DNA from: a virus
Virus record (IMG/VR): IMGVR_UViG_3300001199_000019
Coordinates: 1-42,157 of that record
DNA: 42,157 nt
Strand: one strand, 5' to 3'
Below the pieces are notes generated by a model, which did no database searches, was not told where the DNA came from, and saw only the letters and a program-made list of their open reading frames with translations. The position numbers were made by a program, and so were the translations under genes. Of this stretch, positions 3,856 to 39,190 are shown one piece after another. The first letter of the stretch is position 1; every line of letters begins with the position of its first letter.

Positions 3856-6800
3856 TTAAACGGGTTCTTTCACATGCAGCGTGAGCGCGGACACGGAAAT
3901 GTTGTGGTTCGGGTTGCCGCTTACGAAATCGAGCTTGAATTTCGCGGCACGGCAGGTGAAATCGGCGACGAAGAACGGCGTCCATGCACCCCAGGTCGGC
4001 GCGCCCGCCGGGTCGTCGTCGGTCGTGGCGGCGTACAGCGTCACGTCGCAGTCGTTGATGACGTTGCCGTCGATTAAGCCCCAGTCGTCGATGTTCTCGG
4101 TCTTGGAGTCAATCAGATCGCCGGTGTCGAACGACAGCGCCGTGAGGTCGGACTCGAAGCGGCGTGTTGCCACCGAACCCATATCCAGATAGGTGTCGAA
4201 GGCATAGCTCCCGGTTGCGGAAATGCCACCGAGAGAGTCAATGAACGGCCAGTCATCGATGTTCGTCGCCATCGAATCGATCAGCGTGGTGCCATCAAGC
4301 TGAATCGCGCTGCCAACCTTGGCGACGTTGGTTTTAGCACCGGTAAAACCGGCCGCCTGCGTGCTGGTGGCGACGGTCGTGAAGCCCGTAACCATGCCCT
4401 CGGTCGCCACAAAACTGACGGCGTTGGCCGAGTAGTTGCCGCTCGAATCCAGCGCCTTGAGCATGTAGGTGCCGGTGATCAGCGGCACCTGCCCGTTCAC
4501 GGCGTTGCCGTCGAACTCGTCGAGAATGACGCCGTCGTTCCACGTCGCGCCGCTGGTCAACGGCGAGTGCCGGACGATGATCCGGCCGCCGATGCGCACG
4601 TCCAGATCGTCGTGCAGGTTCCATCCCGCTTGCGCCACGCCACCGACCTTGCTGACCGAGAAGCCGGTTAAATCGGCGGGATCGGCGGCCAACCCCTGCA
4701 GTTGGATCGTCGCGTAAGGCGCGTTTTGCAGTTTGGTGCGTTCACCGATCTGATTGATGGTGAGCACCGCGACCTTGTGCTGGCCGATCTGAGTCAGATT
4801 CGGGACGTTATAAAAATTTTCCGTGGTCGTGCCGGCAAAGCGCCACACCGAAGCATCGTGATACCAGACATCGAACCCGGCGACGAAATCGCTGCCGGGC
4901 CGTGTCCAACGCACGTCGATGGACGTCACCACCGTCGTCGGGTTCACGACCACCAGACGCTCGGACAGGATGATCCCCGTGACCGGCGGCAGCGGATCCA
5001 ACGCCGAGTAATTGGCCGTCGGCAGCACCGGCTGGTCGGTGTCCACGTTGTAGATGCTCGCGTTGTACTCGACGAGCGACAGCGTCGCGGCCTGGTCCGA
5101 CTTGCGCTGGATACCGATGACCAGGAACGGCTTGGTCTCGATGGTTGCCTCGCCGAAGGCGTACACGTCGTATTGCGCCGGCGTTGCCGAATACGGCGTC
5201 GAGACGTTCAGCACCGTGTAGCTGCCGGGCGTATTCGTCACCGTGCGCGTGACGATGGTATCGTCCGACAACCGCACCATGACCTCGTAGGTCTTGCCGG
5301 ACTCGATGGTTACGGTCTTGTCCAGGGTGACGCTCGTGCTTGTGGCCGACACCAGCCGCCCGCCCTCGCCCCACTGCGGCACGTCGTGTTGGACGTACAC
5401 CAGGTCGCCGACGGTGCAGGCGAGCGAATCCACGTCCACGTCCAGTTCGCAGGTGCGGGTGATGTACTGGTTGCGGTACAGCCGGTACATCGCCTCGCGC
5501 CACGCCTGGGACGCACGGGTCACGCCGAACAGTTGCAGGTTGACCTTGTTGACCGTGCTGTCGATGCTGGTATTGATGACCGTGAGCTTGTCGCGCTCGT
5601 AGTCGCGGTCCTCGCTGGTGAAATCCACCTCGATCTCGGAGGCGCGTTCCACCATCGGCAGGAACGTCTCGCGGAACTTGTCGGCGCCGATATTGCCGAC
5701 GCTAAAGAGCTGCGCCGCCGTGCTGCGGGCGGCGTCGTGCACGACCGTCAGGTTGATGCCGTTCCAGACGAGAATCGCGCGGGCGCTGGCGCAGACCTTG
5801 AGCGCGGCTTCCCACATCGTCGTTTCGGAATCGAACCCGCCGTCGAACAGGCAGCGTTTCTCGGTGCCGCCGGCGCCGTCCGGCACCAGACCGTCGCACC
5901 AGTCGGCCCAGGCTTTGAAGGCCGTGGTATCGAGCCGCGTCGGGGCTATGCCGTCGAACCGGATCACGCCGTCGTGCGTGGCGCCGGCGCGGCAGGTCCA
6001 CACCACCGTGCCATCGGCCACGGTATTGCCCACCGTGGTCGGCCACGTCGGCTCGCTGGCGGCCGTGGTGCCGGCGGTGGTGCATTCGTAGAGCTTGCCG
6101 TTGCCGGTGGTGGGCCGGATAGTCGTTCCAGCACTGACCACCGTGGCAACGCGCCAGGGATCGTAAAACACCGGCTGCGTCAGCACGTCGTAACAAACCC
6201 ACGCGGGGTTGTTGGACAGGCCGATCGGCCACGCCGACCCGGTATAGCTGCGCACCAACGCGGCTTCGACCAGGCACGAGAATTTCAGCGAGCCGGAAAT
6301 CTGGTCCGTCGCCAAGGCACGCACTGCGGCCAGCACCGTGCGCGGATACTGGAAGTCGTCGTACAACACTTCGGTCACGCCGCTCAGGTACAGGTCGTCG
6401 CCGTAGCGCGAGCTGGTCTGGTCGGCGGTGTTGTTTGTGACGCGCACGTCATACTTGCCATGCGCCAGGTTGTCGGCGCGAAAAACCCGCCGCAGCGACT
6501 GCTGCTGCGCGGCGGTGATCGTGGCGTAGTCCACGGTCGAGACGACGGTCCTGACGGTCGTGGCGTCCGCGATCCAGCGCCAATAGTCGCCGTCCGTGCC
6601 GTAGGCTTCGCCGTCGGTGTGCGCGTAGGCGTCGGTCGAACCCGCCGCCGCTTCCTGCCAAGAATCGGCGCCATCCGACCCGCCGAGCCAGCGGCCGGCG
6701 CTCCACCGGCTGGTGTAGACCGTTTCGGTCGATGTGACCGTGGACGTCGTCAGCGTCTTCCAGCTCGGGTCGCCCTGTTTCTTGTACTCAACCTTGACGC

Positions 6801-12752: not shown

Positions 12753-13205
12753 TTAAGCGCTGCCGTCGGCGCGCGAGCGCCGGTAAAGCACGGTCCACTC
12801 CATACGCAGCGACCCGGTGGGTTTGTCGCCATCGCCTTTCAGATCCGGCTCAGCCGGGCCTTCGAGCGAATCGAGGACAAACGCCAGGCCCTGCGTGTGG
12901 TCGGCGCGCAGCGCGACGATCGCCTCCTTGCGTATCTGGTTGAGCTGCGTATCCACCTGCGTGGCGGAGGTCTTGGACAGCGCCTCGATGAACACCGTAA
13001 GGCGGCTGTCGAGATACTGAAACGACGACGACGCGCCCTCGTCGTGCATCGGCACGTCCGGCCCGAGATACACCAGAATCGCCGGCAGCTTGTTGTCCGG
13101 CACCGGATGCACGCGCCCGCGGAACACGTTGGCGCCCGTGGTCGCGAGGCTGGTCACCTTGGTCACGAAGGCGGCGACAATCTGCTCGGCGCGGAGGTCG
13201 GCCAT
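12753..13205 (-). CDS. head-tail connector / tail terminator-like protein
   Basis: 150 aa. Called by position upstream of the tail tube gene. Its start overlaps the TAA of mini-ORF cassette C. Confidence 0.45.
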   Translation of the reverse strand: MADLRAEQIVAAFVTKVTSLATTGANVFRGRVHPVPDNKLPAILVYLGPDVPMHDEGASSSFQYLDSRLTVFIEALSKTSATQVDTQLNQIRKEAIVALRADHTQGLAFVLDSLEGPAEPDLKGDGDKPTGSLRMEWTVLYRRSRADGSA

Positions 13206-13249
13206 TAGTGTCTACCTGCTACGCGCTTCACGCTCGCTCGTCCGGTCAT
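13205..13249 (-). CDS. conserved 14-codon mini-ORF, copy C (MTGRASVKRVAGRH)
   Basis: ATG at 13249. The TAA shares its last A with the ATG at 13205 (TAATG). The 45 nt are near-identical to the copies at 18154..18198 and 20999..21043. Confidence 0.5.
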   Translation of the reverse strand: MTGRASVKRVAGRH

Positions 13250-13251
13250 AT

Positions 13252-13524
13252 TCAGTGCACCTTGGATTTCTGGTAAAGCTCGATGACGAACACGCCGACG
13301 TTGTAAAGAGCGGTCATCGCGCCGCCGACGATGAGCAGCAACAGCCCGCCGATCAGGGTCGCCTTGATCTTGTCGACCAGCTCCTGGCGCCGGAGATCGC
13401 GGCGCTTATCGCGTTCGATGCGCTGGTTGATGTAGTCGTGATGCGCCCGGTGCGTATCGTGGTCGAGACCATCGCGCTCGTTGAGCGCGGCGTGCACTGC
13501 CTGCTTGATTGCCGCTGCATCCAT
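13252..13524 (-). CDS. small membrane protein
   Basis: About 90 aa with the C-terminal TM segment LIGGLLLLIVGGAMTALYNVGVFVI. AAGGGG lies 9 nt upstream of the ATG at 13524 (alternative ATG at 13533). TAATG overlap with the TraR-like stop. Confidence 0.45.
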   Translation of the reverse strand: MDAAAIKQAVHAALNERDGLDHDTHRAHHDYINQRIERDKRRDLRRQELVDKIKATLIGGLLLLIVGGAMTALYNVGVFVIELYQKSKVH

Positions 13525-13760
13525 TAACGCCATCCCCTTGCGCGCCCCTGTTGATGTTCGTGTTTTTCCTGACACTCCGCGCAGCGCACCGCCTGCGGAT
13601 TGGCAGCTAACCGCTGCTCGTTGATCGGGTCGTCGCAGTCGAGACACAGCCGGACACCGCCCACCGTGCGCGGCGCTTCGCGCGGACGGTTGCGCGCCGA
13701 CGCAATCGCCTCATCTCGCAACTCGTCCTCGCGCGCCTGTGCTTTATCAACGGCGTCCAT
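13524..13760 (-). CDS. TraR/DksA-family C4 zinc-finger protein
   Basis: 78 aa with CLDCDDPI...RCAECQ, as in phage TraR/DksA-type zinc fingers. Confidence 0.75.
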   Translation of the reverse strand: MDAVDKAQAREDELRDEAIASARNRPREAPRTVGGVRLCLDCDDPINEQRLAANPQAVRCAECQEKHEHQQGRARGWR

Positions 13761-17260: not shown

Positions 17261-18154
17261 TTAACGACTGAGCGATGCGTTGAGATCGGCCAAGTTGGCG
17301 CGGCGCTGTGCCACATCCGTCCTGTCCGCATTGAGTTTGGCGATCAGACCGTTCATCGTGGCAACACCGTCCACGAGTCCCGCGCTGACCGCCTGCTGGC
17401 CGGTGAAAACGCGACCGTCGGCCATGTTCTGTAACACCATCTCCGTGTCCACGCCGCGCTGCTTGGCGACATCGCCCACGAAAACAGAATAGAGGTAATC
17501 CACCATGTCCTGGATGTACTGCTGGCCAGCCTCGGACAACGGCTTGTGGCTAGAGGCGATGCGTTTGTACTTGCCGGCGAAGATTTCGGTGGTCTTCATG
17601 CCGAGCATTTCCTCGCGCCGGGAATAATCCGTGTGGCTCGCGACCACGCCGATCGATCCCACCTGAGCGGTGTCGGAACCGATGAACACCTTGTCGGCGG
17701 CGCTGCCGATCCAGTAAGCCGCCGAGGCCATCATGCCGTCCACGTAGGTGACGATGGGTTTCTGCCCGCGGGCGCCGTGAATCAGTTGCGCCAGTTCCTG
17801 CGTGCCGTCCACGGTGCCGCCGGGCGAATCCACCTGCAGCAACAGCGAATGCACCGCCGGGTCGGCCAAAGCGGCGCGGATGTCGCGCCCGATGAGTTCG
17901 GTGCTGGCCCCGCCGCTGATCTGCGAGAACAGGTTCATACGCTTGCTGACGACGCCGTCGATCGGGATCACCGCCACGCCGTCAATGACCTCGTAACCCT
18001 GTTCCTTGTTCTGCAGCGGCTGGCCGAGCTTGGCCTCGATGCCTTTGATGTCGATCTTGTCGCCGCGCAGATGCGTGGCGTAGATCGCCTGAATCTCTTG
18101 CAACTTGTCGGGGACGATGGCCCAGGGAGAATTCAAAACATCAATCACGCGCAT
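17261..18154 (-). CDS. S49-family (SppA/ClpP-like) prohead protease
   Basis: 297 aa with VDSPGGTVDG and MMASAAYWIGSAADKVF blocks. It lies directly after the portal gene. Confidence 0.85.
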   Translation of the reverse strand: MRVIDVLNSPWAIVPDKLQEIQAIYATHLRGDKIDIKGIEAKLGQPLQNKEQGYEVIDGVAVIPIDGVVSKRMNLFSQISGGASTELIGRDIRAALADPAVHSLLLQVDSPGGTVDGTQELAQLIHGARGQKPIVTYVDGMMASAAYWIGSAADKVFIGSDTAQVGSIGVVASHTDYSRREEMLGMKTTEIFAGKYKRIASSHKPLSEAGQQYIQDMVDYLYSVFVGDVAKQRGVDTEMVLQNMADGRVFTGQQAVSAGLVDGVATMNGLIAKLNADRTDVAQRRANLADLNASLSR

Positions 18155-18198
18155 TAACGTAGCCCTGCTACGCGCAGCGCGCTCGCTCGTCTTGTCAT
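18154..18198 (-). CDS. conserved 14-codon mini-ORF, copy B (MTRRASALRVAGLR)
   Basis: A GGAG RBS lies within the portal 3' end. ATG at 18198. The TAA overlaps the protease ATG (TAATG). Confidence 0.5.
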   Translation of the reverse strand: MTRRASALRVAGLR

Positions 18199-18202
18199 AA
18201 AA

Positions 18203-19831
18203 TTAATTCTCCTCGGGCTTGTCCGGCGCATCGGCCGGGTTATCCATGGGCCGTGACGGCATCGTCGGCGCCGACACAACGACCGGTTCCAGTCCGCCGT
18301 CCTTGCGCGCCTTTTTTTCGCGCACAGCTTGGGCGTGTGTGTCTTCCCAATCACCGCCGTTGTAGTCGGCGATTTCCTGTTCTAGATTGGTGATACCGAT
18401 CTCGATGCGCGTCTGTGCGGCATTCGCCTCCTGCGCCGGCTGGATATGCCCCATCGGCACGCCGTACCAAGTCGCCATGCAGTACGCGCGACGGATGTAC
18501 GGGTCATCGAGGAACCCGGGCGCGCGCAGCAACCCGCGCGCGACGCACTCCATCAGAAACTCCTCATACACCGGCTGGCAAAACGAGCTCGCGAGCCATG
18601 CGCGTTTCTTGCGGTAGAAGCGCCAGGCCTCGAGCAGCGCGGCGCGGGCAGCGGAATATGACGCCGTAAAATGCTTGACCAGCACCTCGTATGGCAATTC
18701 AAGCGCCACGCCGATCTGCTCGGCGATGGCACGCACGAATCCGTCAAACGCCGTGTTCGGACGGCCCGGATTGGCGGTGTCGATCTCCTCGCCATCGGCC
18801 AGACCGATAATGGCGCCGTTACCGAGCTTATAGTCCGTGTCGGACGCGGAACCGCCAACCTCGGAGGTCGGCGACATCGCGGCCAGACCATCGGCACCGC
18901 TGCCATCCTTATTTTTAACGAACACCGTGAAATATCCGCTGACGACCGCGGCCATCAGTTCAGCGTCGGTATAATCCGAGATCATCTTCAGCGCCTCGAT
19001 CACCGGCGTGAAATACGGCACGCCGCGATTCTGGCCGGGGCGCAGCCGGGTGAAATGGTGCAGCACGTTGCGCCGGCCGGTCTGTTCGCCGAAGGCCGGG
19101 ACGGTAATCCATTCGCGGTTCTTGAGCGTGACCGCGCCCGGGTGAATCTTCAGGACATCGTAGGCGGTGGGCGAGCCGTTGACGTCAAGATGTACGCCGC
19201 CAGCGCACTCCAGCGTGTCTATCTTCCAGCCATCGTTGCAGACGCGCGCGCCTTCGATCAGCGTGACTTTGAGTCCGAACGGAGACCCGCGGCGCTCGAT
19301 GAACGGCAACATGGAAAACACGTCGCCGGATTCGAGCGAGGCGCGCAACACCAGGTCGCACAGGCCGTGAAAATTCTGCGTGCGCGTGGTGTCGCACTCG
19401 GGCGAATCCGCCCACATATTCCAGAAAAACTCGGCGTCCGCTTCCCAGGCTTCCGCCTCCGCGTCCGTCAGACCAAGAAATTCGCGGTCGATGTTGCTCT
19501 TGGCTTTTATCCAGGGACCGACCACCGACGTGCAGACGGTGTTGATCGCGCCGGCGGCCAGCGGCGAATTGCGGACCAAGTCGCTGGAGCGGTCGCGCAG
19601 GACCGCCAGGTCGGGCAGCAGGGCGGCATCCGCGCTCAGCTCCGCCGGTTTGAACGTGCTCAGGGAACGGCGCGTTCGCGAACCGCCGGTATAGCCGCCG
19701 ACGACCGCCAGCGTCATGCGCGCCCGATAACGCTGGGCGGCGCGCACCGGATCGGCCCAACGGATCGCCTTGTCGAGCAGATTCTCCGTAACGCTGAGGC
19801 GCCGGAGTTTTTCGTTGCCGGTGTCGCGCAT
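18203..19831 (-). CDS. portal protein, lambda family
   Basis: 542 aa. The size, position after gpW and sequence character match lambda gpB-type portals. Confidence 0.85.
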   Translation of the reverse strand: MRDTGNEKLRRLSVTENLLDKAIRWADPVRAAQRYRARMTLAVVGGYTGGSRTRRSLSTFKPAELSADAALLPDLAVLRDRSSDLVRNSPLAAGAINTVCTSVVGPWIKAKSNIDREFLGLTDAEAEAWEADAEFFWNMWADSPECDTTRTQNFHGLCDLVLRASLESGDVFSMLPFIERRGSPFGLKVTLIEGARVCNDGWKIDTLECAGGVHLDVNGSPTAYDVLKIHPGAVTLKNREWITVPAFGEQTGRRNVLHHFTRLRPGQNRGVPYFTPVIEALKMISDYTDAELMAAVVSGYFTVFVKNKDGSGADGLAAMSPTSEVGGSASDTDYKLGNGAIIGLADGEEIDTANPGRPNTAFDGFVRAIAEQIGVALELPYEVLVKHFTASYSAARAALLEAWRFYRKKRAWLASSFCQPVYEEFLMECVARGLLRAPGFLDDPYIRRAYCMATWYGVPMGHIQPAQEANAAQTRIEIGITNLEQEIADYNGGDWEDTHAQAVREKKARKDGGLEPVVVSAPTMPSRPMDNPADAPDKPEEN

Positions 19832-20091: not shown

Positions 20092-20787
20092 CTAGTATCC
20101 CCGGCGCAAGCGCGCCGATATTTGCTTCTCGAAATTATTTCGCCAGGACCGCGCCACCACTCTCTCGACCACGGAATAAAACCGAAACCGCGTGCGGTAC
20201 TGCGGCTGCTTGACGAACACCAGCACCGGCACCACGCCACCGGCGCGACGGCGCCAGATGCCATTGGTGCCGTCGAGGATGGCGTGAAAATACTCCGTGC
20301 GCCGGTTGTGCGGCGTGCGCTGTAGCGGGTCGAAGTGCGCCCGCACCTGCGCGAGGATCTGTTGCATCTGCCCGCGACTCATATTGCCGTGGCTGTCGAT
20401 GCGCGCGCCGGCACCGGGCACGATGAACATATTCGCCGGCAAAATGCCGCGTGCGCGCAGTAGCTTCTCCGAGCGCTTGGCCGGCCGCGGGCCACCCTCG
20501 ATTTGTGGATTGAGGTAGGCATAGGCGTCCGTGGATTTGAACGCCTTGCCCTGCAAGTTGACTTCCGACACCAGTCGGAACGATCGCGCCTTCACCACCC
20601 ACGGCGCGTTGAGCGTCCAGCGCGTCGGACGATCGAAAACCTGCTTCATTTCTTCTTGCGCGACGCGCCGGCCCTCGAAGGCCGTATCGTTCAGTGCCGC
20701 CGCGGCGGCTTTCGGAACCACCTCGGAACCGATCAGGCGCAGTTGACGGATGGCGTCCTGCACATCGGCACGAACGCTGATCTCCAT
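20092..20787 (-). CDS. hypothetical virion-associated protein
   Basis: 231 aa. ATGA overlap with the csp stop. No family was recognised. Confidence 0.5.
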   Translation of the reverse strand: MEISVRADVQDAIRQLRLIGSEVVPKAAAAALNDTAFEGRRVAQEEMKQVFDRPTRWTLNAPWVVKARSFRLVSEVNLQGKAFKSTDAYAYLNPQIEGGPRPAKRSEKLLRARGILPANMFIVPGAGARIDSHGNMSRGQMQQILAQVRAHFDPLQRTPHNRRTEYFHAILDGTNGIWRRRAGGVVPVLVFVKQPQYRTRFRFYSVVERVVARSWRNNFEKQISARLRRGY

Positions 20788-20999
20788 CAGCCGCCCGCGA
20801 GCGGCGCGACGTGCGCTGCCTGCTGGCCTTTGGGGCCCTCGACGGTATCGAACTCGACGCGCGAACCATCCTTGAGCGTGCGGTAGCCCGTGCCGTCGAT
20901 TGCCGTGTAATGCACAAACACGTCCGCAGAGCCGTCCTCGGGTGTGATGAAGCCGAAACCCTTCTTGGCGTCGAACCACTTCACGATACCGGTGCGCAT
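20787..20999 (-). CDS. csp: cold-shock domain protein (CspA family)
   Basis: 70 aa. [34 protein letters not shown] carries the RNP1-like (KGFGFI) and RNP2-like (VFVHY) motifs. Confidence 0.9.
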
Positions 21000-21043
21000 T
21001 AATGTCGCCCTGCTACGCGCTGCGCGCTCGCTCGTCTGGACAT
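20999..21043 (-). CDS. conserved 14-codon mini-ORF, copy A ([14 protein letters not shown])
   Basis: A GAGGA RBS lies 8 nt upstream of the ATG at 21043. The TAA overlaps the csp ATG (TAATG). Confidence 0.5.
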
Positions 21044-21057
21044 ATGAATTTCCTCGG

Positions 21058-21085
21058 CAAATAAAAAGCCCGCACGGAGGCGGGC
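21058..21085 (-). terminator. rho-independent terminator t2 (second of a tandem pair)
   Basis: On the minus strand: GCCCGC-CTCCGT-GCGGGC followed by TTTTTATTTG. Confidence 0.75.
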
Positions 21086-21086
21086 A

Positions 21087-21113
21087 TAAAAAAACCCGGC
21101 ACGGGGCCGGGTT
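21087..21113 (-). terminator. rho-independent terminator t1 (first of a tandem pair)
   Basis: On the minus strand: CCCGGC-CCCGT-GCCGGG followed by TTTTTTT. Confidence 0.8.
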
Positions 21114-24507: not shown

Positions 24508-24761
24508 TTAAGTGCCCTCAATCTTGGCGCGGTACCGATGAACCCAGTGCCAACACCACCATCGGGATTCGCCTGCACGCGTACTCCGAGATTTTCGAGT
24601 GCACGCAGGTGATCGACCTCGACCTTAGCCGAATCGATCACCACCTTCGCGACGCCGGCAATGGCCTTGGCCCGTTCAATGTCCATCGGTTTTTCCTTGT
24701 CCTTCAACGATTCGATCGTCTCGAACAGGTGATCACGCAGATCTTCGATTCGGTTTTTCAT
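24504..24761 (-). CDS. hypothetical protein
   Basis: 85 aa ORF. ATGA overlap with the downstream gene. Confidence 0.45.
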   Translation of the reverse strand: MKNRIEDLRDHLFETIESLKDKEKPMDIERAKAIAGVAKVVIDSAKVEVDHLRALENLGVRVQANPDGGVGTGFIGTAPRLRALK

Positions 24762-25422
24762 CTTTCATTCTCCGGTTGATTTGACGCACGAGGGCGCCGC
24801 GCAGTTGGATCAGGCGACCGATCTCTTTCGGGTATCGGTTGTGATACGTGTTGAGGCGCATTCGTTCAGCCCAGTTGAGCAGCATAAGGTTGTCGAGCCG
24901 AATATCGCGTTTGTCCCCATTGAGAAAGCACACCATGTACCCGCGCGGGATCGGTCCATAGTTTTCCTCCCACAGCAAGATGTGCACACCGCGCCAGTCG
25001 CGCGGCGGATAGCCGGTGTCGCTGATCTTGCGGTCAAGATAGCCGTCGGCGTTGATGCGTTCGGTACCGATCGGTTTCCACGTGTGCGATTTCCGGCCCT
25101 TCTTGAACTGTGTCTCGGCCATGCGCCCTGGCGCGTAGCCTGGCCGACGTAGGCCTTTGTTCGCTGGCACATGTCCCTTTTGGAAGCGGCACGCGGCTCC
25201 GACATTGTCGCCACGACGGAGCCGACAAGCCGCCGGACTGGCGAGATAGGCCGCGCTTTTCTTAAGGCCGAGGACAGAGGCTTTGTTATAAACTTGCTCG
25301 ATCCGCCGACCCAACAATGCCGCAATTTCTGTAGTCGGCGTATTGGGATACAGACGCTTCAGTGTCTCCAGCTCGGCGGGTGACGACCACGGGTGACGCC
25401 GCTTGTATTTCCTGCATTTCAT
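24733..25422 (-). CDS. HNH_3-like endonuclease-family protein (motif possibly degenerate)
   Basis: 229 aa. HILLWEENYGPIPRGYMVCFLNGDKRDIRLDNL resembles the HNH_3 core, but Phe sits where the motif His is expected. ATGA overlap with the terS-like stop. Confidence 0.65.
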   Translation of the reverse strand: MKCRKYKRRHPWSSPAELETLKRLYPNTPTTEIAALLGRRIEQVYNKASVLGLKKSAAYLASPAACRLRRGDNVGAACRFQKGHVPANKGLRRPGYAPGRMAETQFKKGRKSHTWKPIGTERINADGYLDRKISDTGYPPRDWRGVHILLWEENYGPIPRGYMVCFLNGDKRDIRLDNLMLLNWAERMRLNTYHNRYPKEIGRLIQLRGALVRQINRRMKDEKPNRRSA

Positions 25423-27103: not shown

Positions 27104-27357
27104 TCCATTCGATACACCTGATACACACCTTGATACACACCCCGATACACACTAAGTGCATGAATACACTTACTTGATACGGGCGATACATACATTCCCG
27201 TGCTACGCGCACGGGAAAGACATACCTATATATGTGTAACCGTCAGGCTCTCGCGCGCGCGCGCGCGTAAGTCCGTATCGCCCGTATCATTCAAATAAAA
27301 TCAATATCTTTGCCTGTATCGGCGCGCGTATCGGCGTGTGTATCGCCCGTATCGGAA
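27104..27357. promoter_or_regulatory. putative replication origin: inverted iteron arrays, hairpin, (CG)8 tract and AT-rich core
   Basis: YGATACAC occurs four times (27110-27150), with degenerate copies extending to 27191. A hairpin lies at 27197-27215 and a (CG)8 tract at 27252-27267. YGTATCG occurs six times (27274-27354), flanking the AT-rich stretch 27288-27314. The region abuts the primase-helicase stop. Confidence 0.6.
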
Positions 27358-29835
27358 TCACGCGCGCAACTCCTCCAGCACGCTCCTGAATTTGAAAAAA
27401 CATCCCGTCAGCCACTGCGCGGTGCTCGTGGCCTCGTCCTTCCATGCCCCCGCCTTGATGAGCGCCGACTCTTCCGGAATAACGACGCGCCGCGGGCGCG
27501 TGGGCCCGGCATAGGCGCACGACTCGTAGACGTGCCGGGGCTGGTTGCTCCAGCCCCTGATCTTGGCGACGTGGCCCAGGAACTGATTGCTCTCGCGCGG
27601 TCGCTGCACGCCGTTGGCGCGGCACCATCGGAGATAGGCGGCGTAGAGGTCCATGCTGGCGCACGGGCAGAACGGAAAATCGGTCTCGCCGGCCATCCAG
27701 TCCGAGATAAACCGCTCGACCGAGTCGAGCGAGATCGCGATGAGGTCGGTCTTGGCGCTGGTAACGGGCGGATCGGTCCACGGCCGGAAGTCGCCGAGAT
27801 CGAGATTGAGCAGGTAGTCATGCAGCGCCGCGCCGCCGCCGGCCTTTATCTCCGCGCTGACATCGTTGTAGAAGTCGCGCGACAGCTTCTCGGGCGTCCA
27901 GATGACGGTGAAGCGGCGGTCGTCCTTTTCGAGCACCAGCGGCTGGCGCTCGTTGGACAGGAACACGATGTTGACGTGGTTGCGCTCGTCGTGGGCGGCG
28001 ACGTTTTTCGGGTTGATGCGGATCCACTCGCCGGTGATGAAGCCCTTGAGTTTGTTCTTGGTGTGGAACAGCTCCTGGCGCGCCACGACCTCGTCGCCGA
28101 TAAGGAATAACTTCTTGCTCGCCCAATCGTTGAATTTGTCCTCGATCGCGGCCTGGTCGACGATGCGGCCGTAGGTGCCGTATATCCCCATGATGGCCTC
28201 GAAGAACAGGTTTTTGCCCACGCCCTGGGGGCCATGGAAAATCAGCGCTGTTTTCATCTTCGCGCCGGGATGCTGAATCGGGTACGCGAGCCACTTGAGC
28301 ACCCAGCGATTCACGTCGCGCGCGCCGGCATCCGATGAACACATGTATTCGAGCATCTCGAGCAGGTGCTCGCAGGAACCGGCCGCGGGCTTTGTCGGCC
28401 AGCCGCCCCAAAGGTTACAGCGGATGGTCTGGTCGGATTCCGTGGGGTCGAAACCGACCTCCTTGAGCCGCACCACCTTGCGTGCGGCGCGGGTCTTCCA
28501 TTCTTTCCAGCCGTGGTCTTGCAACAGATCGAGCACGTCTGGCTTCGGGACGAGCTCGTGCTCCTGGTGGTCGAACAACGTGCCGCGACCGCCGTAGACG
28601 AGCGAGTAGCGCTCGACGGCTTCCTCCACGGTGAGCACCGGTTTGAGCGGTTTGTCGCCCCCGTCCCCATCGTCCGGCGCAGCGAGCGGCGCGGGCGCCG
28701 AATGCACCCACCCCAACTCGGCGATCTTGGCTTCGGTCTGCGTCCGCACCACGTGAAGACCTTCGGCCAGGTGCAGGTCGTTGAAGTCGGTGATCTTCTT
28801 TTTGCCGCGATCCGTGGAAAAGACCGGCGCGATCCACCCGCCCCCTACAGCAAGCGCAGCGGCCTGTGCCTGTTCCACCCCCGTGTTGCCATGCGTATAG
28901 GCCGTGCCACACACAGGGCACTTGCCGAGCGAGACGAGGTCGAGCGTGCCGCAGGTCTGGTTCGGACAGCGGGCGAGGAAATCATCGTCGGCGCATACCA
29001 AAATGCGTGCGCGCGGGTACTGCCTGTGCAGTTTTTTGGCGACCGCCAGCAGGTTGCCGGCATCGAACGCCGCGGCCGTCGGGTAAGTCGTGGCCTCGTG
29101 CAGCGAGGCGGCGGTGGCGTATCCCTCGGTAAGCAGGACGATCCACGACGGCGCGCCGGTGAGAAGAAACAGGCCCTGCTTGGCTAGTCCGAACGGCCAG
29201 TATTGCTTGTTCGTATCCTCGCGTTTTTTCTTGACCTCGGGGCCGATGAACTGCAGTCCGCGCACCTGCGCGTGCTCGTCGTGCATCGGCACCACCAGCG
29301 TGCCGGTAGACGTGAACCGCGCGCCGTGGGCCTGCACGCCCTTCTCAATGAGGTAGGGGGACTCGCCGGTCGACAGGCACTTCTCCCACATCGTCCGCGC
29401 CCGGGCGGCCGCGCGCTCAGCTTCCCGCCGGCGCTGTGCCTCCTCGCGTTTCCGGTGTTCGGCGAGCCGGATACGGATCGCCTCCTTCTGCTCCTTTGTC
29501 AGCTCGCGCCGCTTGACGCTGGCCGATCCGCAGGCCGGGCATTTACGTTCCTTGAATGGGACGCTCTGCCGGCATTCCTCGCACTGCTTGGTGAGCTCGA
29601 TTTTTTGAGTGCCGGGGTCGTTGCCCTGGTAGACACCGAACGCACCGACCAGGTAGCAGCGACCGTCGATGTAGATATCGTGCAGCCAATACCAGCCGCG
29701 CTTCTCCCGGCCACGTCCCTCGACACGACACCGCGCCGACTTGCCGCCGCCGATCTGCAGCCCACCGTCGGGAATGATGAGCCCGACGGCACGCAGCTGG
29801 TTGAGCACGTCGTCGTAGTTATCGGCGACGCTCAA
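27358..29835 (-). CDS. bifunctional primase (Toprim) / SF3 helicase (P4/D5-type)
   Basis: 825 aa. TTG start with a GGAGAGG RBS. Zinc-ribbon CxxC pairs, Toprim-like LTEGYATA...CADDD, and a Walker A motif FHGPQGVGKN with downstream DUF5906/D5-like blocks. Confidence 0.85.
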   Translation of the reverse strand: MSVADNYDDVLNQLRAVGLIIPDGGLQIGGGKSARCRVEGRGREKRGWYWLHDIYIDGRCYLVGAFGVYQGNDPGTQKIELTKQCEECRQSVPFKERKCPACGSASVKRRELTKEQKEAIRIRLAEHRKREEAQRRREAERAAARARTMWEKCLSTGESPYLIEKGVQAHGARFTSTGTLVVPMHDEHAQVRGLQFIGPEVKKKREDTNKQYWPFGLAKQGLFLLTGAPSWIVLLTEGYATAASLHEATTYPTAAAFDAGNLLAVAKKLHRQYPRARILVCADDDFLARCPNQTCGTLDLVSLGKCPVCGTAYTHGNTGVEQAQAAALAVGGGWIAPVFSTDRGKKKITDFNDLHLAEGLHVVRTQTEAKIAELGWVHSAPAPLAAPDDGDGGDKPLKPVLTVEEAVERYSLVYGGRGTLFDHQEHELVPKPDVLDLLQDHGWKEWKTRAARKVVRLKEVGFDPTESDQTIRCNLWGGWPTKPAAGSCEHLLEMLEYMCSSDAGARDVNRWVLKWLAYPIQHPGAKMKTALIFHGPQGVGKNLFFEAIMGIYGTYGRIVDQAAIEDKFNDWASKKLFLIGDEVVARQELFHTKNKLKGFITGEWIRINPKNVAAHDERNHVNIVFLSNERQPLVLEKDDRRFTVIWTPEKLSRDFYNDVSAEIKAGGGAALHDYLLNLDLGDFRPWTDPPVTSAKTDLIAISLDSVERFISDWMAGETDFPFCPCASMDLYAAYLRWCRANGVQRPRESNQFLGHVAKIRGWSNQPRHVYESCAYAGPTRPRRVVIPEESALIKAGAWKDEATSTAQWLTGCFFKFRSVLEELRA

Positions 29836-33651: not shown

Positions 33652-33846
33652 ATGAGCCAGAACCGCGACTACGCCACACGCGACCACGCCATCCGCTACG
33701 CGTTGCACGAACACGCTGAAGCAACGCTGGCCCTACGCGCAGCCGGTTGCCCACATACCGAGGCTTCACAAGTGGCATACCGCGCCGTTCAAGGCGACAA
33801 GGGACAAATCCGAAAAGGCCGTGCCTTACTGAGGAAACCAACATGA
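33652..33846 (+). CDS. hypothetical protein
   Basis: 64 aa ORF. ATGA overlap with the ParB-like start. Confidence 0.4.
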   Translation: MSQNRDYATRDHAIRYALHEHAEATLALRAAGCPHTEASQVAYRAVQGDKGQIRKGRALLRKPT

Positions 33847-35393
33847 CCACCACCCTGCAGCAGATCCCGATCACGCAGCTGCACGAGTCGCCGCTGAACC
33901 CACGGCGCACCTTCGACGAAAAGACACTCAAGGAACTCGCCGCCAACATCGCTCAGGTCGGCGTGCTCACGCCGCTGCTGGTGCGCCCGAACGCCAAGGG
34001 CTACGAGATTGCCGCCGGCCACCGCCGCTTCCGCGCCGCCAAGCTCGCGAAGCTCGCCGAGGTGCCGTGCGTCGTGCGGGATCTCGACGACAAGACGTTC
34101 CTCGAGATCATGACCATCGAGAACCTCCAGCGCGAGGACGTCCACCCGATCGACGAGGCCCTGGGCTACCAGGTGCTGATCGACAAGACCGGCATGGAGG
34201 TCGCCGCGATCGCGGCCAAGGTCGGCAAGTCCGAGTCCTACGTCTACCAGCGCCTGAAACTCGCCGCGCTCATCAAGCCGGCGCAGAAGGCCTTCCTCGA
34301 CAACAAGGTCACCGCCGGCCACGCCATCCTGATCGCGCGACTGCAGCCCAAGGACCAGGAGGAAGCGCTCAAGTTTTCTACGCGCGGATTTAACAGCAGC
34401 GTGCGGAATCTGGCGGACTGGATCGACGACAACATCCACATGGACCTGCACGCGGCGCCATTCAAGAAGGATGACGCGCAGCTGGTGCCCAAGGCCGGCC
34501 CCTGCACGACCTGCCCCAAGCGCACCGGGTTCACCCCCGCCCTCTTCCCCGACATCGCCAAAAAGGACACCTGCACCGACCGCGTATGCTTCCAGGCGAA
34601 GCGCGCGGCGTTCGTCGCGGGCAGGAAGGCCGAGCTCGCGGAGCAAGGCGAAAAACCGGTCGAGCTGTCCGAGGAATACTACCGCGCCGCAAAAGGCGCG
34701 CTCGCCAAAGACCACTGGATCGAGGTCGGCAACCGGTTCAACAAGGTCTGCGAACACACCCGCGCCGGCATCATCGTGGAAGGCGACGACCTCGGGCGCG
34801 TGCTCAAGGTCTGCATCGAACCGAAATGCCGCGTCCACCGCGGCGCGCAGGAACGCGAGGGCCGATACATGGCGCAGACGGGCCGCAACTTCGCCCAAGA
34901 GCGCCGGCACCAGGCCAAGCAACAGGCGCGCGACCAGGCCATCGGCGTCATCGTCGAAAAAACCAAAGCGCTCGCCACCGACGACCTGCGCCTGCTCGCC
35001 AAGGCCTGCATGCACAACCTCTGGCACGACCACCTCAAGGGCCTCGTCAAGCGCCGTGGCTGGGACGTGAAAAAGGATAAATACGGCGGCTGGAATTACG
35101 CGGAACTTGCCGAGCAGAAGATCGACGGCATGAGCGCCGCCGAGGTCGCCGGCCTCCTCATGGAATACACCATGCTCGGTCGCGGCAGCGACGAGATGCT
35201 GCCGAAGGTCGCCAAGCAGCACGGCGTGAACCTCGCGAAGCTCGAAAAGACCGCGCTGGCCGCACTCACGGCCAAGGCCCGGGAGAAAGCCGCGAAGCAA
35301 AAGGCGGCCGCGAAAGCCAGCGCCAAGGCGAAAGTGCAGACGTCTGCAAAACCGAAAACGCCGGCGGCAAAGAAAAAGAAGGCACGCGCGTGA
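33843..35393 (+). CDS. ParB/Srx N-terminal-domain protein
   Basis: 516 aa. IPITQLHESPLNPRR...YEIAAGHRRFRAAK is the ParB-box signature. The C-terminal tail is Lys/Ala-rich. Confidence 0.8.
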   Translation: MTTTLQQIPITQLHESPLNPRRTFDEKTLKELAANIAQVGVLTPLLVRPNAKGYEIAAGHRRFRAAKLAKLAEVPCVVRDLDDKTFLEIMTIENLQREDVHPIDEALGYQVLIDKTGMEVAAIAAKVGKSESYVYQRLKLAALIKPAQKAFLDNKVTAGHAILIARLQPKDQEEALKFSTRGFNSSVRNLADWIDDNIHMDLHAAPFKKDDAQLVPKAGPCTTCPKRTGFTPALFPDIAKKDTCTDRVCFQAKRAAFVAGRKAELAEQGEKPVELSEEYYRAAKGALAKDHWIEVGNRFNKVCEHTRAGIIVEGDDLGRVLKVCIEPKCRVHRGAQEREGRYMAQTGRNFAQERRHQAKQQARDQAIGVIVEKTKALATDDLRLLAKACMHNLWHDHLKGLVKRRGWDVKKDKYGGWNYAELAEQKIDGMSAAEVAGLLMEYTMLGRGSDEMLPKVAKQHGVNLAKLEKTALAALTAKAREKAAKQKAAAKASAKAKVQTSAKPKTPAAKKKKARA

Positions 35394-36607: not shown

Positions 36608-36828
36608 TGGTCGTGTACTTCCACAACCGTCACACCGAACCGCTGCAGGGGCTCATCCGGCGCTTACAGGCCGAGCCGGACCTGACGTCGGCCGAGACCG
36701 ATGCGCTGACCGATCTCACGCGCAACATCGAGCACGAAACAACCTGCGCGCCCTATCGCCTGTGGCAGCGCGACCAGATTAAAACGGAGAAACACGATCC
36801 ACAACCCGCAATCTCGGAGGCACCATGA
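36607..36828 (+). CDS. hypothetical protein
   Basis: 73 aa. TGATG overlap upstream and ATGA overlap downstream. Confidence 0.4.
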   Translation: MVVYFHNRHTEPLQGLIRRLQAEPDLTSAETDALTDLTRNIEHETTCAPYRLWQRDQIKTEKHDPQPAISEAP

Positions 36829-37439
36829 AGACCAGCACTAAAACCCCCACCATCCCCGGCACCGCCTTCGGCGGCGGGTTCTATGTCGGCCGCATCCGCG
36901 TCGACGACGCCGAATACGCTCTTATCGTTGCGCCGAAGGCCGAGGGCCAGCACGCCGACGGACCGTGGAACGAGTCGTCCGCCAGCGTGAAAGGCGCACG
37001 GAGCTACTGCGACGGACTCGCCAACACGAAGGCCATGGCCAAGGCGGGCAGCAAGCTCGCGCAGTGGGTGCTGGGGCTGCGCAGCGGCGGACACAAGAAC
37101 TGGTATCTGCCGAGCCAGGACGAGCTGGAGCTTTGCTATCGCCATCTCAAGCCCGGCACCGGGGGAAACTCGCTCTATGGCCGCTCGGGGCTGAACATCA
37201 GCGCGGTGCCGCCGACCTACCCCTACTGCACCGATGCCGCGAAGCAAACCAAGGCCAAAGCATTCCGCGAAGGCGGCGCACAGGCGTTCGATCAGGCCTG
37301 GTACTGGAGCTCAACGCAGCTCGCCGCGGACAGCGCCTATGCCTGGATGCAGCATTTCGGCTACGGCTACCAGTACGACGACCACAAGTCGTACGGCGGC
37401 TCGCGCGCACGTGCTGTCCGCAGATTAGTTATTCAGTAA
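36825..37439 (+). CDS. DGR target protein 1 (DUF1566 / C-type-lectin-fold-like, VR at the C-terminus)
   Basis: 204 aa. The NWYLPSQDELELCY block is typical of DUF1566. The C-terminus WYWSSTQLAADSAYAWMQHFGYGYQYDDHKSYGGSRARAVRR is homologous to the TR. Confidence 0.85.
   Translation: MKTSTKTPTIPGTAFGGGFYVGRIRVDDAEYALIVAPKAEGQHADGPWNESSASVKGARSYCDGLANTKAMAKAGSKLAQWVLGLRSGGHKNWYLPSQDELELCYRHLKPGTGGNSLYGRSGLNISAVPPTYPYCTDAAKQTKAKAFREGGAQAFDQAWYWSSTQLAADSAYAWMQHFGYGYQYDDHKSYGGSRARAVRRLVIQ
37312..37425 (+). repeat. variable region VR1
   Basis: It aligns to TR 37958..38068. In a hand alignment, about 12 differences fall on TR adenines, with one T-to-G difference and one 3-nt insertion near the 3' end. 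Confidence 0.85.
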
Positions 37440-37450
37440 TTTAATTATTT
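37425..37450 (+). promoter_or_regulatory. conserved AT-rich element downstream of VR1
   Basis: TTAGTTATTCAGTAATTTAATTATTT matches 22 of 26 positions of the element after VR2. Confidence 0.5.
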
Positions 37451-37461
37451 GGTTTTTCAGC

Positions 37462-37818
37462 ATGGCCTTTCATACCGATTTGCAGATTTACAAGGTCGCC
37501 TACGACCTGCTGGGCGTGGCCGGCGATTACGTGCGCAACATGCCGCGCCCGATCAAGGCTGCGCTCGGCAACCGGGTGACCGAGCTGTGCGTTGAGATCG
37601 TGCTGTTGATTGCCAAGGCAAACAGCGTCCGGGACAAGGTGCCGCCTCTCGAAACCTTGCTCGAACGCAACGAGGAACTGAACCTGCTACTCCGGCTCTG
37701 CAAGGACAAGCGGTTTATTTCCCTCAAGCAGTACGCCGCGGCCATTGGTCTCACCGCCAGCGTCGGCAAACAGGCCAACGGATGGAAAAAACACAATGCA
37801 GCGTCGCCCGTTGCCTGA
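37462..37818 (+). CDS. avd: accessory variability determinant (Avd, four-helix-bundle protein)
   Basis: 118 aa. The helical pattern with a basic C-terminus (GKQANGWKKH) is typical of Avd / 23S rRNA IVS-type four-helix-bundle proteins. It lies between the target and the TR. Confidence 0.8.
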   Translation: MAFHTDLQIYKVAYDLLGVAGDYVRNMPRPIKAALGNRVTELCVEIVLLIAKANSVRDKVPPLETLLERNEELNLLLRLCKDKRFISLKQYAAAIGLTASVGKQANGWKKHNAASPVA

Positions 37819-37942
37819 CCGTCACGGCGGTCTGGCCTGTGCGACTTTTGATCTGGTCGCGCCGCTGGCCCACGAGGCCACCGCTATGCACGCGCGAGAC
37901 CACTCCGGTGCAGTTCCCCCGCTGAACATTCGGCGGGGCGAC

Positions 37943-39190
37943 ATGGAATGCGCGAACCAACGCAGCACGCCGCGAACAGCGACTATGCCTGGATGCAGAA
38001 TTTCGGCAACGGCAACCAGAACAACGACCACAAGTCGAACAACTACCGCGCACGTGCTGTCCGCAGATCACTGCCATCCGGGCCATGCTGACTTTTCTTT
38101 CGAGGAGTTGGTGGTCGCGTATTTCGACTGCCGGCGCACCAAGCGCAACAAACCCTCGGCGCTCGCCTTTGAGCAGGACCTGGAGCGCAACCTGGTACGG
38201 CTCCACGACGAGCTGCAGGCCGGCACCTACCGCCCGGGCGCCTCCGTCTGCTTCGTCATCACGCGGCCCAAGCCGCGCGAGGTATGGGCGGCGGACTTCC
38301 GCGATCGCATCGTCCATCACCTGCTCTACAACCGCATCGCGCCCCGGTTCTACGCCACGTTCATTGCCGACTCCTGTGCCTGCATCCCGGGCCGCGGTAC
38401 GCTCTACGCCGCCCAGCGTCTCGATGCCAAGGTGCGCTCGATCACGCAGAACTGGTCCCGGCCGGCGTGGTACCTCAAGTGCGACCTCGCCAACTTCTTC
38501 GTCTCAATCGACAAGCGCATCCTGCGGGATCTGCTGGCCAAGCGTATCACCGAACCATGGTGGCTGTGGCTGGCCGAGACCATCCTGTTCCATGACCCGC
38601 GCCCGGACGCGGTGCTGCACAGCCCGGCGGAACGCCTGGCGCTGATCCCGCCGTACAAGAGCCTGTTCAACCAAGACGCCGACCACGGCCTGCCGATCGG
38701 CAACCTGTCGTCGCAATTCTTCGCCAACGTCTACCTGGACAGCCTCGACCAACACGTCAAGCACAAGCTGCGCGCGCGGCACTACATCCGCTACGTCGAC
38801 GACTTCGTGCTGCTGCACGAATCGCCGCAGTGGCTCAATGCCGCGCTGGCCGACATCGAGGCCTTCCTGCCAGAGGTCCTGGGTGTCCGGCTGAACCCGA
38901 CCAAGACCATCCTGCAGCCGGTTGTGCGCGGCATCGACTTCGTCGGCCAGGTCATCAAGCCCTGGCGCCGGACCTTGCGTCGACGCACGTTCAACGAGGC
39001 CCTGCACCGCGTGAGTGGTATGGACGCCGGCGACCTGTTCGAGTCGGCCAACAGCTACTTCGGCCTGCTGCGCCAAGCCACGCACAGCCACGCCGACCGC
39101 GTGCGGCTGGCGAGGATCGTTCGCCGACGCGGATTCGCGGTGAACGGGACGCTGACCAAGACTTACCGCGGGAGAAATCAAAGAGCATGA
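37943..39190 (+). CDS. DGR reverse transcriptase
   Basis: LPIGNLSSQFFANVYL (the DGR-type IGxxxSQ motif), the IRYVDDFVLL catalytic box, and FRDRIVHHLLY. The start is uncertain: in-frame ATG at 37943 or 37985, or GTG at 38054. The conserved N-terminus begins near 38090. Confidence 0.85.
   Translation: MECANQRSTPRTATMPGCRISATATRTTTTSRTTTAHVLSADHCHPGHADFSFEELVVAYFDCRRTKRNKPSALAFEQDLERNLVRLHDELQAGTYRPGASVCFVITRPKPREVWAADFRDRIVHHLLYNRIAPRFYATFIADSCACIPGRGTLYAAQRLDAKVRSITQNWSRPAWYLKCDLANFFVSIDKRILRDLLAKRITEPWWLWLAETILFHDPRPDAVLHSPAERLALIPPYKSLFNQDADHGLPIGNLSSQFFANVYLDSLDQHVKHKLRARHYIRYVDDFVLLHESPQWLNAALADIEAFLPEVLGVRLNPTKTILQPVVRGIDFVGQVIKPWRRTLRRRTFNEALHRVSGMDAGDLFESANSYFGLLRQATHSHADRVRLARIVRRRGFAVNGTLTKTYRGRNQRA
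37958..38069 (+). repeat. template repeat (TR)
   Basis: In the VR reading frame it reads NSDYAWMQNFGNGNQNNDHKSNNYRARAVRR, with seven AAC codons. The 3' 22 nt are identical in TR, VR1 and VR2. Confidence 0.85.

Follow-up and report, generated by a model that had tools for sequence, protein, structure and literature searches.

Results

Mini-ORF cassettes at the start codons of phage late genes

The DNA analysed here is the 42,157-nt stretch formed by positions 1 to 42,157 of the IMG/VR virus record IMGVR_UViG_3300001199_000019 (hereafter the window), which carries on its minus strand three co-oriented 45-nt cassettes, at 20999-21043 (cassette 1), 18154-18198 (cassette 2) and 13205-13249 (cassette 3). 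Each cassette consists of an ATG, 13 sense codons and a TAA, that is, a 14-codon mini open reading frame (mini-ORF), and the final A of its TAA doubles as the first base of the ATG of the downstream gene. Cassette 1 (TAA at 20999-21001) leads in this way into csp (20787-20999, minus strand; ATG 20997-20999), coding for a cold-shock domain protein of 70 aa (PF00313, E 4.6e-30). Cassette 2, with the mini-ORF MTRRASALRVAGLR, precedes an S49 head-maturation protease gene (17261-18154, minus strand; PF01343, E 2.1e-37) and cassette 3, with the mini-ORF MTGRASVKRVAGRH, precedes a tail terminator gene (12753-13205, minus strand; phrog_4204, E 1e-14). The cassette-bearing genes belong to a lambda-like late operon that comprises terminase gpA, a lambda-family portal, the S49 protease, a Mu gpT-like capsid protein and tail genes. 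An initial annotation of the window had placed the three cassettes at these coordinates and had proposed their peptides, the A shared between TAA and ATG, and the identity of the three downstream genes, and all of this was borne out. The core GACGAGCGAGCG-N4-GCGCGTAGCAGG matched three times at three or fewer mismatches, against 0.00 matches expected from 100 dinucleotide-preserving shuffles. In addition, a covariance model built from the cassette family (R1) found exactly these three copies over the 42-kb window, with scores of 58.6-67.9 bits (65.9, 58.6 and 67.9 bits for cassettes 1, 2 and 3), the next match reaching 9.8 bits (E ~1).

Database searches did not connect the cassettes to any described sequence. 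Rfam at gathering thresholds gave no family at the cassettes, its sole match in the whole window being the unrelated RT-15 RNA at 37802-37962, and the late region had no megablast match among phages. BLAST of the cassette unit against 50,697 phage records and 72,556 plasmids returned just chance matches of 18-28 nt, and a literature search with the cassette core strings retrieved unrelated primers only. The statement of the initial annotation that no named element has such a sequence thus holds for Rfam and the literature, but a named analogue, the mycobacterial interspersed repetitive unit (MIRU), had been overlooked.

Architecture of the repeat unit

Alignment of 22 distinct copies of the unit gave the consensus ATGACCGGACGAGCGA-GC[GC]-NNN-[GC]GC-GTAGCAGGGAGAC-n-TTA, followed by the next start codon. 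The unit begins with an ATG, usually as part of ATGACC or ATGAAC, and continues through a 5' box (GGACGAGCGA), a GC-rich variable hairpin and a 3' box (GTAGCAGG) to a short tail. In most copies the 3' box runs into GGGAGAC, which resembles a Shine-Dalgarno (SD) sequence, and the tail makes a stop codon on or adjoining the next start codon. The ATG is invariant in all 22 distinct copies, although it lay outside the search pattern. Where units stand in tandem, the period is either 47 nt, with a TGA overlapping the next ATG, or 48 nt, with in-frame read-through, and no other period was seen.

The hairpin has a 4-bp stem and a 3-nt loop, with 95.5% of cells paired. In cassette 1 it reads GCGC-GCA-GCGC (21017-21027, minus strand), and its equivalents lie at 18172-18182 in cassette 2 and at 13223-13233 in cassette 3. 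At pair 19-25, 13 distinct copies have G-C and seven have C-G, a level of covariation that none of 500 shuffles reached. Furthermore, the copy at position 1313 of another IMG/VR phage contig, L001, has its stem extended to 9 bp by a 12-nt insertion that preserves the frame.

Insertion sites and translation signals

The corresponding genes of related phages were compared at 13 loci (L028-L040), and none of these carries the cassette. In L039, the portal of which is 72% identical to that of the window phage, the csp site consists of two terminators followed by caAGGAGttttATG-csp, with AAGGAG as the SD and no cassette; in the window the same two terminators are followed by GAGGAaattcatATG, the cassette and the ATG of csp. 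At the portal-protease junction, the homology to L039 breaks off at 18202 and is found again from 18154, being lost exactly over 18155-18201, and in the relatives an SD leads straight into ATGCGYGTGATCGAC. The tail terminator junction is a direct TAATG stop-start overlap in two relatives (L036 and L037) and an abutting TAA-ATG in a third (L038). Because the relatives keep the same gene starts without the cassette, the cassette is, on the evidence of this comparison, an insertion at late-gene start codons. A larger insertion that also included the SD was considered from the likeness of CCGAGGA(G)AATT upstream of cassettes 1 and 2 and was rejected, as the stretch before cassette 2 encodes the conserved C-terminus of the portal, ...PEEN*, which is also present in L039.

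Each mini-ORF ATG is preceded, at 7-10 nt, by a purine-rich run of the SD type. These runs, all on the minus strand, are GAGGA at 21051-21055 (7 nt 5' of the cassette 1 ATG), GAGGAG at 18209-18214 (within the end of the portal gene, which stops at 18203-18205) and AAGGTG at 13258-13263 (5' of the cassette 3 ATG). Their duplexes with the anti-SD have energies of -5.9, -8.9 and -3.9 kcal/mol, respectively, so that pairing before two of the three ATGs is on par with that of other late genes and the third is near background. This agrees with the earlier proposal that at least two cassettes have an SD of their own. GAGGA at 21051-21055, whose equivalent in L039 is the AAGGAG directly before csp, is probably the original csp SD. 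A further proposal, that the downstream genes lack an SD, is roughly right for the window copies, in which the SD strength before the downstream gene, from within the cassette, is weak (-3.8, -3.8 and -4.6 kcal/mol versus a random mean of -3.1), but it does not extend to the family. The GGGAGAC of the consensus 3' part is a strong SD (-8.2 kcal/mol) placed 6-7 nt before the downstream ATG, and it is weakened in all three window copies. CsrA-type GGA sites were also considered and rejected, since two window copies are without both GGA motifs.

The three cassettes differ in what lies upstream. The distance from the upstream stop to the cassette ATG is 4 nt for cassette 2 and 2 nt for cassette 3, where ORF 13252-13647 ends with the TGA at 13252-13254. 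Immediately 5' of cassette 1 are the two tandem intrinsic-terminator-like hairpins with T runs (21063-21113, minus strand), the first of which is 89% identical in L039; they show cassette 1 to sit in a short leader and not between two coupled ORFs. These terminators separate the terminase region from csp. Only ~20 nt remain between the second one and the cassette ATG, which leaves no room for a promoter, and csp and the genes that follow would therefore depend on read-through.

The repeat in bacterial chromosomes and in a second phage

Sequence collections were scanned with an exact pattern that required the exact core boxes. The phage contig L001 has four copies at three junctions, two of them in tandem. 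It shares no detectable protein similarity with the window phage, and for this reason the two, to judge from their proteins, are unrelated phages that carry the element independently. In the genome collections, the matches with cassette features came from one Sulfurifustaceae metagenome-assembled genome (MAG) and one Burkholderiales MAG (contigs share the cassette-flanking sequence of L001). Among metagenome contigs 18 matched the pattern; most of these have true copies, one being a bacterial contig of 1.03 Mb, and four are chance matches. The pattern matches L005-L007, L010, L013, L019 and L025 were set aside as chance, having no ATG and scoring 15-25 bits with R1.

Units and arrays of up to 260 nt were found at more than eight distinct chromosomal junctions and six phage junctions, and at every junction examined the copies are co-oriented with the downstream gene. 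The chromosomal junctions verified with Pfam are SRPBCC/RatA-like to RnfH, CydA to CydB, ExbD/TolR to TolA, Zn-ribbon to DUF502, and glycosyltransferase to trehalose phosphatase. A further junction lies upstream of the small subunit of acetolactate synthase, IlvH; it was read as ilvI-ilvH, the upstream fragment being without a Pfam match. Orthologous tolR-tolA, ratA-rnfH and ilvH junctions keep the element in different genomes, and the copy number at the ilvH junction differs between contigs (one versus at least two). Another copy (L012 562-606, plus strand) stands immediately 5' of a gene for a 423-aa AAA_22 ATPase resembling a transposition or Mu B-type helper, possibly placing the repeat in a third mobile-element context.

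In the Sulfurifustaceae MAG, a composite unit of 122 nt is ~97% identical at two unlinked junctions, ratA-rnfH and cydA-cydB, and this is hard to explain without copying between loci. Arrays also grow by local duplication, as indicated by near-identical neighbouring units and by the copy-number difference at ilvH. The composite units (L002 6228-6349, minus strand; L009 1045-1169, plus strand; L015 1379-1458, minus strand) are canonical units split inside the hairpin by 36-80 nt, which consist of degenerate copies of a second subfamily (GGACGAACGAGCGAAGCGAAGCAGGG, its pattern also given as GGACGAACG...CGAAGCG) and of a hairpin-less copy (ACGAGCGCAGCAGGGCGAC). The hairpin-less copy has TCCAGACGAGCG and GCAGGGCGAC in common with cassette 1 of the window, a tie between the phage copies and that bacterial lineage. 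The window cassettes are thus members of a short interspersed, tandem-capable repeat family. From the distribution of its matches, the family lives mainly in intercistronic junctions of Sulfurifustaceae-like Proteobacteria and has entered at least two unrelated phages.

At one locus (L014 14190-14231, plus strand) the 3' half of a unit seems to have become part of a RatA-like gene, whose product ends in ...LYGERAAGEQVV instead of ...LYGERS, and the gene end forms an ATGA overlap with the next unit. The repeat would in this case alter the C-terminus of a protein.

Closed chains of mini-ORFs

Each of 18 arrays was translated from its first ATG to the downstream start. All 18 (42-260 nt) are unbroken chains of mini-ORFs, and the stop that closes each chain coincides with the start of the gene behind it. 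The stop-to-start spacings within the chains are only -4, -1, 0 or +2, and seven types of junction occur (TAATG, TAGTG, TGATG, ATGA, TAA-ATG, TAG-ATG and TAA-cg-ATG). Closure survives indels of +12, -3, +1, +2 and +3 nt as well as the 80- and 122-nt composites. When the long or length-variant arrays were shuffled, 0.8-7% of trials gave closure, the figure for long arrays being 0.8-5%. A diverged copy of 42 nt (L015 9701), with an in-frame loss of 3 nt and the peptide MTGRTQRSGVESL, also leaves its chain closed. The initial annotation had held that frame-breaking indels in relatives would argue against a coding function; indels are indeed present in the family, and none of them breaks a chain.

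The conserved coding function suggested by the initial annotation is not supported, as it is not the peptide that is conserved. Residues 7-9 follow the covariation of the hairpin (AQR, PKG, PNG, VKR, ATR, and one version of 18 residues), the diverged copy keeps the frame only, and the third-codon positions of the boxes are as fixed as the first and second. Moreover, arrays and composites yield products of 16, 27, 30, 41 and 42 residues. As far as these comparisons reveal, the selected feature is an open, correctly phased frame and not the peptide product.

Other features of the window

A hairpin of the form TTCCCGTG-CGCGTAG-CACGGGAA lies at ~27197-27219 (minus strand), with the 10-mer GCGCGTAGCA at 27201-27210 in its loop and 3' arm. 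The initial annotation had placed the cassette core in an origin hairpin at 27197-27215. The 10-mer is there, but the link to the cassettes does not stand: this one extra exact copy in the window compares with 0.22 expected, which is not significant, and R1 gives the site 5.6 bits (E 8.5), so that it is not a cassette. The surrounding region (27186-27262, minus strand) has a (GC)n run of ~16 nt before the hairpin and lies between a primase/helicase gene (Toprim and DUF5906/VapE-like, 27358-29835) and small ORFs. The hairpin may be an origin or a regulatory site, unrelated to the cassettes.

The longest ORF at 20092-20979 (minus strand; 295 aa, GTG start) overlaps csp in another frame. Its match to phrog_1924 (minor tail protein) begins at residue 65, and its true start is probably just 3' of the csp stop, at ~20787. 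An HNH_3 endonuclease gene (24733-25422, minus strand) adjoins the terminase region, and the right-hand part of the window, which has the opposite orientation, includes a gene for a ParB-like protein (ParB_N and HTH_ParB; 33747-35393, plus strand). That part also holds a diversity-generating retroelement (36825-39190, plus strand). Its target ORF (36825-37439) has a C-terminal Lcl_C (C-type-lectin-like) domain containing the variable repeat (37312-37394), to which the template repeat (37958-38040) is 89% identical, all nine differences being adenines in the template. The reverse transcriptase ORF (PF00078, phrog_1423) ends at 39190, and the RT-15 match (131 bits) falls within the retroelement. 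No tRNA genes were found in the window.

Discussion

A probably tolerated repeat at start codons

We consider it rather probable that the cassettes represent a MIRU-like, probably mobile repeat, which is tolerated as its mini-ORF keeps the downstream gene translationally coupled. In the window each unit stands precisely 5' of the original start codon of a late gene and 3' of a purine-rich SD-type run at start-codon spacing. According to this model, ribosomes would initiate at the cassette ATG by means of the pre-existing SD or through coupling to the upstream gene, read the 14 codons, thereby melting the hairpin, terminate at UAAUG and begin anew at the start of csp, of the protease gene or of the tail terminator gene. 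Such an insertion would cost little or no expression and would be nearly neutral, and we propose that this near-neutrality of phased insertions explains the restriction of the observed copies to those whose mini-ORF is intact and in the correct phase. The peptide would itself be without function, the hairpin and its flanking boxes would be the likeliest features to be recognised by the copying machinery, and arrays would enlarge through local duplication. A coupling device and a small mobile intergenic element had been listed as separate options in the initial annotation. Start-codon insertion, a dispersed family and closed chains allow the two to fit together, with translation and mobility both as predicted components.

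Several points weigh against this model. We infer translation of the mini-ORF, reinitiation, and active mobility with its mechanism from sequence alone. The closest relatives share only 72-87% protein identity, the empty sites are not clean, the sequence upstream of the protease gene diverges as well, and the diverged flanks resolve the insertion boundaries only to within the ATG. The three window copies show no clear target-site duplication beyond ATG (sometimes ATGA) and no consistent 4-nt duplication. No transposase or other mobilising gene was identified, with no Y1 transposase in the scanned window ORFs or the fetched loci. Single 44-nt units close in 12-23% of shuffles, which is not rare, and the statistical weight of closure therefore lies in the length variants and long arrays. 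The hairpin covariation concerns one pair and probably reflects few independent events, because hairpin variants are locus-specific, and the stability of the hairpin or cassette RNA is unexceptional (z-scores of -1.1 to +2.2). Lastly, the invariance of the boxes is partly a matter of ascertainment, given the exact pattern used in the scans.

Alternative explanations

The boxes and hairpin could instead form a selected cis-regulatory module that binds a host or phage factor on mRNA or DNA, acting through translational repression or activation, RNase processing or differential stability, with the phages having plugged their late genes into a host circuit. Two nucleotide-conserved boxes that flank a structure-conserving hairpin, the strict mRNA orientation in every junction examined, the persistence of the element at the orthologous tolR-tolA, ratA-rnfH and ilvH junctions and the position of one copy before the gene of a cold-shock (RNA-binding) protein are all in line with such a module. 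Nevertheless, we consider it unlikely. No function is shared by the flanking genes (ilvH, tolA, cydB, rnfH, otsB-like and phage head and tail genes), contigs differ in copy number at the same junction (one versus at least two) and arrays contain degenerate and composite units, while close phage relatives carry the same genes without a cassette. Moreover, the invariance of the boxes is partly forced by the search pattern, and no candidate binding factor is known. A second alternative bears on mobilisation and can coexist with the coupling model. The cassette could be a hairpin element of the repetitive extragenic palindromic (REP)/RAYT type or derived from IS200/IS605, with a host Y1 (HUH) transposase moving it in single-stranded form through recognition of the hairpin and the adjacent GTAG, in which case closure would be a selection filter on surviving insertions. 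This alternative would account for a small GC hairpin of variable sequence and conserved pairing flanked by an invariant GTAG, for the copy with the extended 9-bp stem and for the dispersal of the family over chromosome and phages. Classical REPs have GTAG at the 5' foot of the palindrome and are typically arranged in inverted pairs (REPIN, BIME). In the cassette, by contrast, the sense strand carries GTAG at the 3' foot of its hairpin, which corresponds to CTAC at the 5' foot when the other strand is read, and the copies form direct tandems and never inverted pairs. With a single orientation relative to genes in all copies and no Y1 transposase in the window ORFs scanned or in the fetched loci, this origin appears slightly less likely again than a regulatory module.

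A non-mobile minisatellite would have arisen once at each junction and spread by slippage, unequal recombination, gene conversion and horizontal transfer of its flanks, the phage copies being acquired by illegitimate or short-homology recombination with host DNA or transcripts. Near-identical neighbouring units and locus-specific hairpin variants do indicate local duplication, the copy number at the ilvH junction differs between contigs, and neither a transposase nor a clear target duplication was found. We regard this explanation as improbable all the same, as it has to accommodate three precise start-codon placements in one phage and three junctions in an unrelated one without co-transferred host flanks, a complex 122-nt composite 97% identical in two unlinked operons, and the same unit boundaries, from ATG to stop/start, at every locus. 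A functional micropeptide of 14 residues, present in three copies for dosage, has in its favour that the ORF is intact (ATG and stop) in all copies and that the motif M-[TN]-G-R-A-S...V-A-G-R recurs. It is very improbable in view of the variation of residues 7-9 with the hairpin, the peptide MTGRTQRSGVESL of the diverged copy, the 16- to 42-residue products of arrays and composites (16, 27, 30, 41 and 42 residues), third-codon positions in the boxes as fixed as the first and second, and a distribution that is that of a repeat and not of a gene.

Comparison with known systems

The closest analogue of the cassettes are the MIRUs, which have been described, in summaries of Supply et al. 1997, as units of 40-100 bp with ~40-50 copies per genome, intergenic in polycistronic operons (PMC3184786, PMC12548453). 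The ends of their ORFs overlap the adjacent genes, they have GC-rich internal inverted repeats, and filled and empty sites are known (PMC3184786, PMC12548453). They are described as mobile and as inserting at start codons, with their ORF coupled to the target gene and a minimal effect on expression (PMC12548453, PMC3184786), and have been called "found only in mycobacteria" (PMC6286618). As a real MIRU array we fetched, through RegX3, the senX3-regX3 junction of M. tuberculosis (L041 9856-10090). Its units start with ATGACC, contain GCAGAGCGTAGC, a GC-rich palindrome and GGGGGAGAG, and end with GCTGATG; walking the chain gives ORFs of 25 codons that overlap by TGATG with a spacing of -1. A separate tandem repeat of 58 nt lies at 6580-6767 of the same locus. 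Public calls of RegX3 range from 227 to 347 residues, a spread that arises because gene callers extend the ORF into in-frame MIRU units upstream, and the same start-codon artefact, with spurious N-terminal extensions, is to be expected at the cassettes.

Cassettes and MIRUs are both short dispersed intercistronic units (45 nt here, with 80- and 122-nt composites) that form tandem arrays of variable copy number and are co-oriented with the flanking genes. Both contain a small ORF that starts with ATGACC and whose stop overlaps the next start (TGATG/ATGA in MIRUs; TAATG, TAGTG, TGATG or ATGA in cassettes), and both have a GC-rich inverted repeat in their interior and, towards the 3' end, a purine-rich stretch that resembles an SD. 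In both, filled versus empty sites between relatives point to start-codon insertion, the flanks of the cassettes being diverged. They differ in that tetranucleotide direct repeats flank the filled sites of MIRUs and none were seen at the cassettes, that the cassettes are found in Proteobacteria and phage genomes and MIRUs in Actinobacteria (mycobacteria), and that the basic unit of the cassette is shorter. No sequence homology was detected: R1 gave no match on senX3-regX3, nhmmer gave E 7.3, and alignment against shuffles gave p 0.02-0.2. Published MIRU motifs such as GGCGCCGGTGACGATGCAGAGCGTAGCGA, tested against shuffles, were also not significant, with only ATGACC, GCAG and GCGTAGC in common, and a MIRU motif search in plasmids returned nothing usable. 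Homology is accordingly not claimed, the covariance model, nhmmer and pairwise alignment all being non-significant; the element works like a MIRU but stands outside the MIRU family. A literature search that did not cover all journals found no description of the cassette sequence, or of MIRU-type repeats in Proteobacteria or phages. What is new here is the occurrence outside mycobacteria and the precise insertions in phage late operons, the design principle being already known.

The order of short strings is the same in cassette and MIRU (ATGACC ... GACGA ... GCAG.GCGTAGC ... purine-rich SD ... stop/ATG). We tentatively raise the possibility, doubtful at present, that the cassettes have recently arisen from an active mobile element which has start codons as its target, is powered in trans by the host and is able to invade infecting or resident phages, and that with the MIRUs this element makes up a cross-phylum class of "translation-neutral" mini-ORF insertion elements, possibly of shared origin. 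The precise insertions acquired independently by two unrelated phages speak, if only circumstantially, for mobility in trans, and they give a handle on the question, standing since 1997, of how MIRU-type repeats move. Were such an element active, phages would offer a tractable system in which to capture new insertions and to identify the mobilising enzyme.

The initial annotation had likened the cassettes to the start-associated sequences (SAS) of mycobacteriophages, and this likeness could not be maintained. SAS of Cluster K phages are 13-bp asymmetric motifs (GGGATAGGAGCCC) at the SD position, 3-7 bp before the start (PMC3203893). They are confined to non-structural phage genes, and exact copies were absent from the host genomes examined; the inverted repeats of the extended form (ESAS) are 17 bp long and without pairing-preserving changes (PMC3203893). 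SAS/ESAS and cassettes are alike as phage repeats just 5' of start codons, in one orientation and with a suspected role in translation initiation. SAS, however, have no ATG, ORF or stop-start overlap, whereas the cassette is a 45-nt ORF of different sequence; the window cassettes all lie in the head-tail operon, and members of the family abound in bacterial chromosomes. SAS and cassettes thus differ in size and sequence as well as in gene class and in their distribution among hosts. REP elements, very short GC-rich extragenic repeats that contain a hairpin and are dispersed in intergenic regions of Proteobacteria (PMC3184786), resemble the cassettes, as do BIMEs and REPINs, in having a short GC hairpin with GTAG adjoining it and in their intergenic dispersal. 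The cassettes differ from them in carrying GTAG on the opposite side of the hairpin, in forming direct tandems and not inverted pairs, in their strict orientation to genes, and in conserving a start codon together with a phased stop.

Finally, the arrangement of the cassette unit recalls a synthetic one. Its features of an upstream SD, a short leader ORF that holds the SD of the gene and a leader stop that overlaps the gene ATG (TAATG) are shared with the bicistronic design (BCD) cassettes for translation initiation that were reportedly devised by Mutalik et al. 2013. The cassettes differ from BCDs in being natural, repeated and dispersed, in the weakened internal SD of the window copies, and in a hairpin and boxes that BCDs do not have. 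The idea of a short ORF that delivers ribosomes has also been mentioned (PMC12548453). For engineering, the cassette unit would be a natural counterpart of the synthetic bicistronic expression cassettes. A second, sequence-unrelated family with the architecture of MIRUs, found in Proteobacteria, argues for a general solution, in which a repeat may occupy a start codon if a phased mini-ORF hands the ribosomes on.

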